Assembly (NCBI GenBank): GCA_041390305.1
Contig: JAWKQE010000028.1
Span: 5,967 to 69,966, forward strand
DNA from: Candidatus Eiseniibacteriota bacterium
GTDB lineage: Bacteria; Eisenbacteria; RBG-16-71-46; CAIMUX01
Reading direction: 5' to 3'
DNA: 64,000 nt
The notes beneath the pieces were generated by a model. That model was not told the DNA's origin, ran no database searches, and saw only the letters and a list, made by a program, of their open reading frames with translations. Positions 28,092-33,610 of the stretch are shown here, piece by piece. The position numbers and the translations under genes were made by a program. Numbering within the stretch: position 1 is the first letter of the stretch; each line of letters begins with the position of its first letter.

Positions 28092-28358
28092 ATGACAGGT
28101 CGATGGGACGGACTCCCGCCCGATTGGGAGGAGGTGTCCCGCTTCGACGGAGGGGATGGTGGGTGCGGGGAGATGCTTCTCGACCTGCGGATCCACTTCC
28201 GACCGCTCGATCCCGGTGTCCGCGTCGCCGTGCTGGCCTCGAGTGAAGGTGCGCCGGTGGAGATTCCGGCCTGGTGCAGGGTCACGGGGCATCACCTTCT
28301 GGTCGCGCATCCACCGTACTACCTGATCGAAGTCCGAGAGACGCAACCTGAAGCCTAG
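28092..28358 (+). CDS. TusA/SirA-like sulfur-carrier protein
   Basis: FDGGDGGCGEMLLDL (Cys at the TusA CPxP position) and EIPAWCRVTGH; GGAGG RBS. Confidence 0.8.
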   Translation: MTGRWDGLPPDWEEVSRFDGGDGGCGEMLLDLRIHFRPLDPGVRVAVLASSEGAPVEIPAWCRVTGHHLLVAHPPYYLIEVRETQPEA

Positions 28359-28442
28359 CTGTCACGCGTCGCGGGACGGTTCTCGGCGGGGCCGGGACCG
28401 GGGACGGCGGAAGCGCCGGACAGCAAACGAAGGAGAGTGGAG

Positions 28443-28808
28443 ATGAGCAACAAGTTCTGTGTTTCGATCACCGAGTGCAAGAAGGACGGGGACATGGCCA
28501 CGGTCGGGTTCGTCGTCGCGAACGCCGCCCTCGGCAGTGAGAAGGAGACGATGGTCTTCCTGTCCGCCGACGGGGTCTGGTCCGCGGTCAAGGGCGAGTA
28601 CGAGAAGATCGTCGAGGGCGAGCCGTTTGCGCCGCTCAAGGAGCTGGTCGACAAGTTCGTCGCGGGCGGTGGGAAGATCCTCGTCTGTGCTCCGTGCCTC
28701 AAGAAGCGTGGACTCGATGCATCGAACCTGATCGAAGGTGCAACTCCGGCCGGAGGGGCGGCGCTCGTCGAGTTCCTCGACGGCGGTACGCCCTGCATCT
28801 CGTATTGA
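28443..28808 (+). CDS. DsrE/DsrF/TusD-like sulfur relay protein
   Basis: ATVGFVVANAALG...MVFLSADGV, L.EL...F...GGKILVCAPCLKKRGL....LIEGA..AG. Confidence 0.85.
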   Translation: MSNKFCVSITECKKDGDMATVGFVVANAALGSEKETMVFLSADGVWSAVKGEYEKIVEGEPFAPLKELVDKFVAGGGKILVCAPCLKKRGLDASNLIEGATPAGGAALVEFLDGGTPCISY

Positions 28809-28943
28809 GTCGAAGAAGAAGCGGCTCGACTCGCGGCCCACGGAGATCCAGGTGAGAAGTGACCACGCTCGTCTGGGCCGGGAGGAGAGGGCGTACTTCT
28901 GGAGGATCTCCGCATGAGGGGAGTCTGACGAAGGGAGGAAGAG

Positions 28944-29711
28944 ATGGGAGAGTCGATCGATCTCGCGAACATCGACGTAGCTCGGGTCTTCGACGGGGGA
29001 GATCTGGACTGCGGTTCCGGGCTCGTGTTGCTCATCCGGGAGAACATGCTCGAGGTGCCGGAAGGTTGTGTCCTCGAGATGCGCTCACGGGAATCCACCG
29101 TGGCCGACGACCTGCCGCCCTGGTGCAGGATGGTCGGTCACGACTTCCTCGGCTCGCTTCCACTCGAGACGTCGGGTCGCGGCGATGGAACCGTCCGCTA
29201 CTTCGTGCGTCGCGGTAGCGGGGCGGCCGCAGCCGCCGAGGCCAAGGCGCTCGAGTCGGACAAGGAGAAGGCGCAAACGTACGAGTGGCGGCTGCGCGTG
29301 AGGTCGACGGGCCATCTCGAGAGCACGGCCTATTGCCGGAACTTCTCCTTCCAGGCCGGTCAGCCCGCGAGCTTCGAGGAGAAGGACGCGCATCCGTCTG
29401 CGGTCGAACTCCTGCTCGGTTCGCTGGGTGCCGCCCTCACCACCGGGTTCGCGTCCGAGGTGGCGCGGGCCGGGCTCGACGTCGACGACATCGAGCTGAC
29501 CGTGAAGGGACGGCTCGGGAATCCGCTCGCGCACCTGGGGCTCGGTGAGGGAGATCCCGGACTGGTTGCGGTGGAGGTGAAGTGCTTCGCTTCGACCATG
29601 GCGGACGAGTCCGCAGTGCGAGAGGCGTGGCAGCGTACCGTCGAGAGATCTCCTGTCGCGGTCACTCTGGGCCGGGCGACGGAGCTCACGCTCAAACTGG
29701 CGATCGTCTGA
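28944..29711 (+). CDS. TusA-like plus OsmC/Ohr-like fusion protein
   Basis: N-domain FDGGDLDCGSGLVLLIR...DLPPWCRMVGH; C-domain PSAVELLLGSLG, DDIELTVKG, RSPV..TL. Confidence 0.8.
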   Translation: MGESIDLANIDVARVFDGGDLDCGSGLVLLIRENMLEVPEGCVLEMRSRESTVADDLPPWCRMVGHDFLGSLPLETSGRGDGTVRYFVRRGSGAAAAAEAKALESDKEKAQTYEWRLRVRSTGHLESTAYCRNFSFQAGQPASFEEKDAHPSAVELLLGSLGAALTTGFASEVARAGLDVDDIELTVKGRLGNPLAHLGLGEGDPGLVAVEVKCFASTMADESAVREAWQRTVERSPVAVTLGRATELTLKLAIV

Positions 29712-29781
29712 GAACGACGCATCCAGGTCGAAGGTGCCGCGGTTGCCGCCGAGTGCGCGCTGCGTCACGGAGGTCGAATCC

Positions 29782-30958
29782 ATGTTCGATGTCACACAGG
29801 TCGGCAGTTGGCCACGTTCCCGAGAGCTCCTCGTCGCGCTTCGCGATCATCAGAAGGGACGGATCACGAGAGAGGAGTTCGAGCGGATCGCGGACGTCGA
29901 GGTCGATCGCTGTGTGGACGCGCAGCTCGAGGTCGGCGCGGACATCATCGTCGATGGAGAGATGAGGCGGGACAGCTTCTACTCGTTCGTCACGAACAAG
30001 CTCGACGGCACGCAACTCATGTCGCTCGCCGAGATGCTCGATACGGTCGAGGACAAGGCGAGCTTCGAGGAGATGCTCTCGACGCTCGACGTGCCCGCGT
30101 CCGCGATCAAGAACCCGACGTGTGTCGGCAAGCTCCAACGGAGAGAGCCGCTCGCCGTTCGCGAGTACGAGTACGTCCGCGCACGGACGGACAAGCCGGT
30201 CAAAGTGCCGCTTCCGGGGCCCTACCTCCTCACCCGGTCCATGTGGGTCGGACAGTTCTCGAAGGCGGGATACGGGGACAAGCTCGAAATGGGCGAGGAC
30301 GTCGTCCGGATCATGCAGGATGAACTGTTCGAGCTCGCGGAAGCCGGATGTGACTTCGTCCAGTTCGACGAGCCGGTGCTGACCGAGATCGTGATGTCCG
30401 AGGAATGCGACCGTCGCACCTTCATGAGCGACCTTGGCTACCCGCCGGGATGCGGGTTCAGAACTCGAATACGCTGCCGACCTCCTCAATCAGATCGTCG
30501 ACGGAGCCCGCGACCGCGTGACCCGCAAAGGTCTCGTCATGCCGCGGATCGGAATCCACGTCTGTCGGGGCAACTGGAGCCGCGATGAGAGCGTCCTCCT
30601 GACCGGGGACTACACGCCGCTCCTGCCCGCGTTCGAGAAGATGCACGTCGACCAGTTCGTGCTCGAGCACTCCACGCCGAGGGCCGGTGACGTCCAGATC
30701 GTGGCGCGGGCTCTGGCCGGTCGAGAGCTCGGCCTCGGGGTGGTGAACCCTCGGACGGAGACCGCCGAGTCGCCGGACGAGATCGTCCGCCGGGTCGAGG
30801 AACTGCTCGAGTTCCTGTCGCCCGACAGGATCTTCCTGAACCCCGATTGTGGGTTCGGGTGTTTCGCCAACCGGTGCGTCAACGATCACGAAACGGCCAA
30901 GGCGAAGACGGCCAGCATGGTCGAGGCGGCGCGAATGCTGAGAGCGCGATACCAGTAG
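29782..30958 (+). CDS. Single-barrel cobalamin-independent methionine synthase-like (MetE C-terminal/core family) zinc enzyme; frameshift near 30427
   Basis: VGSWPR, DIIVDGE.RR, VQFDEP; Zn ligands HVC, E (FVLE) and PDCGF. The two ORFs 29734-30588 and 30434-30958 join into one domain. Confidence 0.85.
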
Positions 30959-32998: not shown

Positions 32999-33610
32999 CT
33001 ATCCGTTCAGCGCTTCGTGGACCTTTCCGACCATCTCCGGCCCAGGGCGGAGCGTCTTGTCGCCCTCGTCCTTCCACTTGGAGGGACAGCCTTCGTCCTT
33101 CTTCCGGGAGAGGTAGATGTTGGCCTTGAACTTCCTCATGAGCTCGTCGATGTTCCGGCCCATGTTGTAGAAGTTGACCTCCGCGTTGAAGAGCGTGCCG
33201 TCGGGCGCGATGATGAACGATCCGCGGAGAGCGAGACCGGACCCCTCGTCGTACACGCCGAACAGCCGCGACACGCGACCGGTCGGGTCGGCGCCCATCA
33301 GATACTGGACGTTGGCCAGCTCCTTCTCGTCCCGCTTCCAAGCGAGGTGAGTGAACTCGGTGTCCGTCGACACCGTGATGAGCTGGGCTCCCATCCGCTC
33401 GAAGCGATCCTGCTGCTCTGCCAGAGCAGCGAACTCGGTCGCTCACACGAAGGTGAAGTCGGCGGGGTAGAAGAACAGGATCGTCCACTTCCCGTTCGCG
33501 GTGAGGTTCTCGAGCGAGACCTTGGTGAAGTCGTGGCTCTTGGGGTCGTAGCAGGTGAGCTCGAAGTTCGGCACCTTGTTGCCGACCTTGACCTCGCGGA
33601 TCTCAGTCAT
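32999..33610 (-). CDS. ahpC: Selenocysteine-containing 2-Cys peroxiredoxin (AhpC/Prx1 type); UGA at 33445-33443
   Basis: Continuous frame of 203 codons from ATG 33610 (GGAGGA RBS) to TAG: ...FFYPADFTFV-UGA-ATEF...; resolving Cys in EGCPSKW; ALRGSFII.PDG motif. Confidence 0.9.
33404..33442 (-). promoter_or_regulatory. Bacterial SECIS element
   Basis: After the UGA: GCGACC..., an 8-bp stem GCUGCUCU/AGAGCAGC with a GGC apical loop beginning after 20 nt, and a lower stem GCGA-CC/GG-A-UCGC. Confidence 0.8.

Follow-up and report, generated by a model that had tools for sequence, protein, structure and literature searches.

A predicted selenocysteine-containing MetE-like enzyme family encoded with TusA-, DsrE- and OsmC-like proteins

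A 64,000-nucleotide stretch of contig JAWKQE010000028.1 from Candidatus Eiseniibacteriota bacterium (the window) contains a four-gene cassette encoding a TusA-like protein, a DsrE-like protein, a fusion of a TusA-like and an OsmC-like domain, and a MetE-like zinc enzyme. Comparison of this cassette with its relatives strongly suggests that the enzyme family is a selenoprotein family, with selenocysteine (Sec) predicted at residue 216, and that it belongs to a dedicated, conserved cassette. We consider this highly likely because homologous genes carry an in-frame TGA at this codon, the TGA is followed by a hairpin specific to TGA-containing genes, synonymous sites within the hairpin are nearly frozen, and the genome encodes tRNA-Sec, SelB and SelD. 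The copy in the window itself has a two-base gap at the Sec codon, which is considered below together with the partner proteins and the reactions that the enzyme may perform.

The UGA codon and hairpin of the MetE-like gene

In the window, the first reading frame of the MetE-like gene runs from 29782 to the ATG at 30424-30426, and homology resumes one base out of frame with the GCG at 30428. Cys-type homologues, which number in the thousands and are ~380-400 aa long, read RRTFM-C-ATLATRxD at the site of this break, and the Cys column at position 216 is invariant in alignment A5. Relatives identified by a whole-genome search have ATG TGA GCG at the same site in 8/8. A locus scan, with the TusA-OsmC alignment as the query and one genome taken per species, returned 80 loci, 77 of them with the enzyme gene. 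An in-frame TGA was present in all 77, reading RRTFM-TGA-ATLATRRD, and TAA or TAG was never found in its place. The loci span about ten phyla and come from Candidatus Eisenbacteria, Gemmatimonadota, Desulfobacterota (including the cultured Desulfopila and Desulfobulbus), Acidobacteriota, Planctomycetota and Bacteroidota, and also from Anaerolineales (Chloroflexota), Krumholzibacteriia, Fibrobacterota and Myxococcota.

Downstream of the TGA is a hairpin that resembles a selenocysteine insertion sequence (SECIS) element. It conforms to ACCCGC-CG[G/T]GA[T/C]-GCGGGT, with a stem of 5-6 bp, and starts at nt 16-17 counted from the U of UGA (12-13 nt after UGA). The E. coli fdhF element has an 11-nt spacer and the loop bases G23/U24, and the geometry of the hairpin here agrees with it. 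Of 76 distinct Sec genes, 74-76 form each of the five inner stem pairs; among 8 Cys-type genes, just 1-3 do so at four of these five positions. Variation in the stem of the Sec genes consists of G-U variants and one compensatory change from C-G to A-U. Across the alignment, 94.6% of stem cells were paired, compared to 25-49% when the partners were slid. The four-fold degenerate codons in the stem (Thr+5, Arg+6 and Ala+9) are close to frozen, with entropies of 0.19-0.27 bits, whereas the equivalent codons just outside the stem vary freely (1.3-1.9 bits).

The genome also encodes the machinery for Sec decoding. It has two tRNA-Sec genes (C8:53298-53393 and C38:46236-46333), a SelB gene (C15:75472-77343, 367 bits) and a SelD gene (C14:64505-65428, 378 bits) whose product is itself a selenoprotein (SCAG-U-ASK). 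SelB was found in 39/41 relatives, suggesting that the whole class uses Sec. No conserved link between sel genes and the cassette was seen across the 80 loci. An earlier reading of the window from the sequence alone (the sequence-only reading) had stated that this genome uses Sec, and this proved correct, yet the predicted Sec is located in the MetE-like enzyme, at a family-specific Cys column outside the Zn site.

If the TGA were an ordinary stop codon, the enzyme would be a split or truncated protein made from two open reading frames (ORFs) and the hairpin would be incidental. Gene callers and databases do annotate the gene in this way, as fragments of 218-224 aa. We consider this reading very improbable, since TGA is used at 77/77 loci to the exclusion of TAA and TAG, in-frame homology to proteins with a Cys resumes directly after the TGA, the hairpin with its frozen synonymous sites is confined to TGA genes, and tRNA-Sec, SelB and SelD are all present in the genome. 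Decoding of the TGA as another amino acid was rejected on the same evidence.

A peroxiredoxin gene lies 2 kb downstream of the cassette on the opposite strand (window 32999-33610, minus strand) and also has an in-frame TGA (DFTFV-U-ATEF). Its hairpin, GCUGCUC-UGGCA-GAGCAGC, begins 16 nt from the U of UGA, a spacing equal to that of the MetE-like gene, and the TGA context TGAGCGACC is common to the two genes.

The window's own UGA codon is not intact. Positions 30424-30430 read ATGAGCG (ATG-A-GCG), with TG missing. The frame of the MetE-like gene is thus broken at 30426/30427, which the sequence-only reading had overlooked, and the gene is not a single ORF in the window. Alignment to a genome of the same genus (G001) revealed one uncompensated 2-nt gap, placed at the Sec codon; this nucleotide alignment has ~80% identity and many compensating gaps, and comparison at the ORF level is confounded by spurious high-GC ORFs. 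We think that the gap is probably an assembly indel and otherwise a very recent inactivating deletion. The frame after the break stays open for 176 codons, the hairpin is intact, and the ratio of nonsynonymous to synonymous substitution rates (dN/dS) relative to G001 amounts to 0.05 on the 5' side of the break and 0.11 on the 3' side. Both halves of the gene are under purifying selection, and the low dN/dS on both sides indicates that the break is recent or artefactual. The MetH gene of the same assembly is split in two frames by a single missing G in the conserved DTEEAR motif (C3 ~68560-68585), which suggests that the assembly contains indel errors. A real deletion, which would leave this cassette without a working enzyme, is a possible though not the favoured explanation. 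The window sequence is frame-shifted as given, the MetE-like enzyme is single-copy in the genome, and the TGTG repeat at this site is prone to slippage. On the other side stand the 176 open downstream codons with their dN/dS of 0.11, the intact hairpin and the MetH deletion pointing to indel errors. An intact reading at 30424-30430, that is ATGTGAGCG, would mark the gap as an assembly artefact. The features of the cassette are collected in Table 1.

Table 1. Positions of the cassette genes, the remnant of the Sec codon and the hairpin in the window
Feature	Position	Strand	Details
TusA-like carrier 1	28092..28358	+	88 aa; motif FDGGDGGCGE; Cys25 (28164-28166), Cys62 in PAWC
DsrE-like protein	28443..28808	+	121 aa; Cys6 (FCV), C82-x-P-C85, motif VCAPC
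TusA/OsmC-like fusion	28944..29711	+	255 aa; TusA-like domain motif FDGGDLDCGSG, Cys23, Cys61
MetE-like enzyme, codons 1-215	29782..30426	+	ends ...RRTFM; S9, E60, D196
Sec codon remnant 'A'	30427	+	TG gone compared to relatives; frame shifted +1
MetE-like enzyme, codons 217-392 plus stop	30428..30958	+	Zn ligands H260 (30557-30559), C262 (30563-30565), E296 (30665-30667), C357 (30848-30850)
SECIS-like hairpin ACCCGC-CGGGAT-GCGGGT	30440..30457	+	intact in the window

Conservation of the cassette and its carrier proteins

The four genes and the motifs quoted for them in the sequence-only reading were all found where it had placed them. They are co-oriented (28092-30958), and each is preceded by a Shine-Dalgarno sequence. 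The order TusA - DsrE - TusA/OsmC - enzyme was found in 77/78 informative loci from about ten phyla, a co-occurrence far beyond chance, and the four genes are thus co-conserved. The free TusA gene comes after the enzyme gene in Acidobacteriota and in part of the Planctomycetota. The sole exception among the 78 is a Verrucomicrobiales locus (L081, 4001-4750) that has TusA, DsrE and TusA/OsmC without an adjacent enzyme gene. No further gene family was present in more than nine of the 80 loci. In one genome (G012; L010, C25, 748-2260), one gene joins a TusA domain directly to a Cys-type enzyme, with TusA and DsrE genes preceding it. This fusion gene is also frame-broken in its metagenome-assembled genome, near 1991-2004. 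Collectively, the conserved cassette, the lack of any other constant neighbour and the TusA fusions support the idea, already put forward from the sequence alone, that the carriers are functionally coupled to the Zn enzyme.

The TusA-like protein scores 25.4 bits against the Pfam TusA model (PF01206), slightly under the cut-off of 28.6, and 17/19 of its orthologues match this model. A profile of the orthologues matched E. coli TusA (1DCJ/3LVJ) with E=7e-10. Cys25 is kept in 76/76 orthologues and Cys62 in 74/76; the active-site Cys is invariant but occurs in a (D/E)-x-x-C-G motif, not in CPxP. The DsrE-like protein scores 48 bits against PF02635 (cut-off 22.7), with Cys6 conserved in 77/77 orthologues and Cys82 and Cys85 in 78/78. 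A search of PDB sequences with this protein returned BurrH repeats as the best matches, which we rejected as spurious, and its matches to DsrE/TusC were weak. The fusion protein scores 41.7 bits against PF02566 (cut-off 27.5), its match to TusA is weak, and its Cys23 and Cys61 are kept in 80/80 orthologues. All orthologues have other residues (LGAAL and RSP) in place of both canonical OsmC/Ohr Cys of the OsmC-like domain (alignments A2 and A4), and so do the OsmC-like proteins that occur as separate partners of Cys-type enzymes. The OsmC-like domain is probably a docking or adaptor subunit. The proposal of several Cys-based carriers therefore holds for the TusA-like protein, the DsrE-like protein and the fused TusA domain, but not for the OsmC-like domain, which is without both catalytic Cys. 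The further suggestion that Sec might occur at the Cys positions of the carriers was not borne out, as an in-frame TGA was found in none of the 76-80 orthologues of each carrier. An apparent stop in a carrier gene at one locus (L079) was considered as a Sec codon and rejected, being the natural stop codon.

In the enzyme tree, all Sec forms fall in one clade, within which there are two Cys revertants, and one of these (P0002) keeps the DsrE and OsmC neighbours. The sister clade and a third clade consist of Cys forms. Among the Cys-type loci, five (L100, L101, L102, L013 and L017) have an alternative four-gene context, in which the enzyme is found with a Cys-less OsmC-like protein, an Rv1679-family ACAD-like flavoprotein and an Rv1680-family SBP-like protein that has no signal peptide and is cytoplasmic. 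Both contexts include the Cys-less OsmC-like partner. No functional data on Rv1679, Rv1680 or moeX, the namesakes of the alternative partners, were found in the literature searched. The cultured Ammoniphilus resinae has a Cys-type enzyme in the TusA/DsrE context. Directly upstream of this Cys-type cassette (L099, 2935-3606) is a gene for a DsbD/CcdA-type membrane protein that weakly matches TsoB, a rhodanese/DsbD selenoprotein, which hints at a link to thiol-disulfide electron transfer.

Active site of the enzyme and its possible reactions

PF01717 matches both halves of the enzyme, with 74.7 and 43.6 bits (cut-off 21). The Zn ligands H260, C262, E296 and C357, together with S9, E60 and D196, are invariant in alignments A1 and A5 and align to MetE, the roles of the Zn-ligand and homocysteine-contact residues being taken from PMC7857596. 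The single barrel and the retained ligands (H260-x-C262, E296 and C357) agree with what had been read from the sequence alone. An AlphaFold2 model was obtained with a predicted local distance difference test (pLDDT) score of 89 and a predicted template modelling (pTM) score of 0.91. In this model, residue 216 is in a lower-confidence loop, 210-224, which follows a strand (192-196) ending in the homocysteine-binding DEP motif. Two further cysteines, C114 (NPTC) and C361 (GFGC), show no variation in either the Sec clade or its sister clade, but the third clade has A or T in their place; the two might constitute another redox or metal site.

Among solved structures, those closest in fold are MetE barrels (22% identity) and MesD (3RPD, 17%). 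At ~390 aa, the enzyme is not a canonical two-barrel MetE (~750 aa), as its scores against TIGR01371 were 76-111 bits compared to a cut-off of 930. The best NCBIfam match was PRK04326, with 171-193 bits compared to a cut-off of 406, and no NCBIfam model was over its cut-off for Sec or Cys members. The MesA-MesD families are defined as sharing <30% identity mutually (PMC7857596). With 17% identity to MesD and NCBIfam scores far under the cut-offs, the enzyme falls outside the characterised Mes families, in line with the sequence-only reading. Neither MesX/DUF1852 nor a corrinoid partner is among the conserved neighbours at the 80 loci.

Because the Zn ligands and the S/E/D triad are conserved, the substrate is likely a homocysteine-type amino acid, and the exchange of Cys and Sec at column 216 suggests that residue 216 is a catalytic nucleophile or redox centre. 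Given the carrier-fold partners, Sec216 and a site for a Zn-bound thiolate, we favour a chalcogen or redox step. In this proposal, the TusA/DsrE relay would load a chalcogen or an oxidising equivalent onto Sec216, or remove it, and the resulting adduct would be a persulfide, a selenosulfide or a mixed Se-S bond. The Zn-activated thiolate of the homocysteine-type amino acid would then attack this adduct, and the outcome would be a transfer of sulfur or selenium, or a redox step, on a sulfur amino acid. The second TusA-like domain, tethered to the Cys-less OsmC-like adaptor, would serve as a dedicated thiol carrier. As a whole, a Sec216 serviced by the carriers is our best explanation, and we regard the chances for and against it as about even; the specific chemistry at Sec216 is put forward more tentatively.

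Several points weigh against this explanation. Persulfide carriage by the divergent TusA-like domains is putative, as their motif is C-G and not CPxP. The model suggests that residue 216 is at the active-site face of the barrel, with its proximity to the Zn argued solely from topology. What the substrate is, which group is transferred and in which direction the reaction runs are all inferred from conserved residues and gene neighbourhoods. The two-base gap may be real and the window copy dead. Lastly, judging by the loci compared, the TusA/DsrE relay is not a universal need of the enzyme family, because Cys-type members elsewhere have a wholly different partner set.

One rival explanation sees a genuine methionine synthase that draws on an unconventional methyl donor. 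Here, Sec/Cys216 would behave as a nucleophile in the manner of cobalamin and take a methyl group, or would bind a methyl-chalcogen, and pass it to the Zn-bound homocysteine, and TusA and DsrE would clear leftover sulfur or selenium or regenerate residue 216. The full set of MetE Zn and homocysteine residues is kept and the fold is nearest to MetE and MesD, as such an enzyme would lead one to expect. MesD, too, needs a dedicated partner and is often found beside other methionine synthases (PMC7857596), and the ACAD-like oxidoreductase in the alternative gene set recalls the oxygen-dependent MesD/MesX pair. However, all relatives that carry the cassette also have MetH, and G017 and G023 have MetE in addition. 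A search of the window and of 16 loci, one from a Firmicute included, turned up no S-adenosylmethionine (SAM), B12 or T-box leader. Moreover, no methyl-donor protein is conserved nearby among the 80 loci, and methyl transfer via a Sec residue is not known to have a precedent. We therefore consider a methionine synthase of this kind unlikely. A role of the cassette as the housekeeping methionine synthase is likewise unlikely because MetH co-occurs and SAM/B12 riboswitches are lacking, and the alternative methionine or homocysteine synthesis raised in the sequence-only reading finds no support on the same grounds. None of the 41 relatives had MetY over the cut-off, whether or not they carried the cassette, so MetY does not discriminate between them.

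A bolder version of methyl transfer, to which we give little probability, has Sec216 as a protein-borne supernucleophile that replaces cobalamin, is fed by the carriers and relays a methyl group or a chalcogen to the Zn-bound homocysteine. If this were true, the cassette would provide a Se-dependent route to methionine (or to a homocysteine C-S/C-Se bond) without folate or B12, with the Cys-type version and its flavoprotein as the aerobic equivalent. Alternatively, the enzyme could use thiols to reduce oxidised forms of sulfur amino acids, such as a methionine or homocysteine sulfoxide, mixed disulfide or persulfide, with Zn holding the substrate, Sec216 acting as the redox nucleophile and the DsrE CxxC and TusA Cys serving as a relay for resolution or for reductant. 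In the carriers, both the CxxC and the paired Cys are invariant, other clades have a redox partner in the ACAD-like flavoprotein, and DsrE-like UxxC and OsmC-like selenoproteins are catalogued redox families. Sec mostly stands in for redox-active Cys (PMC1794560). Against a reductase, the OsmC-like domain is without both catalytic Cys, no thioredoxin or reductase is conserved nearby, and redox chemistry is known for no MetE-fold enzyme, and we consider it improbable.

Relation to known systems

A PF01717 or methionine-synthase-like selenoprotein was found neither in a 2026 selenoproteome review (PMC13188914) nor in classical surveys, Haft's preprint or deep-Sep, and the enzyme family is not covered by Price et al. 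2021 (PMC7857596). The claim that no described pathway combines such carriers with a core-MetE enzyme also stands, as none was found in the literature searched. A search with the 214-aa N-terminal fragment (candidates of ~118-375 aa) returned ~1,940 clusters at E <= 1e-30. Each of the 120 clusters listed is a 218-224-aa fragment that goes by the name of hypothetical protein or methionine synthase II. The annotation of a gene that is routinely called as a truncated protein can be corrected accordingly. A widespread family from about ten phyla would be added to the prokaryotic selenoproteome, and within the literature searched this would be the first Sec found in a MetE-fold enzyme. The cassette would also tie TusA/DsrE sulfur trafficking to an amino-acid-binding Zn enzyme, implying a new step in sulfur or selenium amino-acid metabolism, mostly in anaerobes. 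The Sec form is carried by the cultured Desulfopila aestuarii DSM 18488, Desulfopila sp. IMCC35008 and Desulfobulbus alkaliphilus DSM 24258, and the Cys form by the cultured Ammoniphilus resinae, so the question is directly testable.

The closest parallel among the methionine synthases is MesD/MesX (PMC7857596; 3RPD). MesD is likewise a single MetE-type barrel that has no folate-binding half and keeps the Zn and homocysteine residues, it has a dedicated co-encoded partner, and it frequently coexists with MetH or MetE. The structural match of our enzyme model to MesD gave template modelling (TM) scores of 0.72/0.82 at 17% identity. In contrast to MesD/MesX, the enzyme described here has an inserted loop with an additional Sec/Cys216, it is accompanied by TusA-, DsrE- and OsmC-like proteins, and it has no DUF1852/MesX neighbour. 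The catalytic barrel of MetE itself (T. maritima 1XDJ/1XPG and E. coli MetE) has the same fold, with a TM score of 0.72, 22% identity and the PF01717 domain, and the two agree in their zinc ligands (H-x-C, E and C) and in the S/E/D residues that contact homocysteine. Unlike MetE, our enzyme has no N-terminal barrel, and an insertion of ~15 residues after the DEP strand carries Sec/Cys216.

Similarities are also seen outside the MetE fold. Catalogued selenoprotein families such as the DsrE-like UxxC and OsmC-like UxxT proteins (PMC13188914) likewise have Sec in place of Cys and are truncated at the UGA in databases. In the cassette, by contrast, the DsrE-like partner is the Cys form, the OsmC-like partner is Cys-less, and it is the enzyme that is predicted to carry Sec. 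Haft's SAO system, with its DsrE-like SaoD (bioRxiv 10.1101/2022.07.06.499078), is likewise a conserved neighbourhood with a DsrE-like protein. In the TusA - TusBCD/DsrEFH - DsrC relay, TusA-fold and DsrE-fold proteins with conserved Cys are similarly co-encoded and serve a downstream enzyme. Two features set the cassette apart from TusBCD/DsrEFH: its TusA motif is D-x-x-C-G rather than CPxP, and its DsrE protein is a single subunit with CxPC. Compared to the acceptors DsrC, TusE and MnmA, the putative acceptor here would be a MetE-like selenoenzyme.

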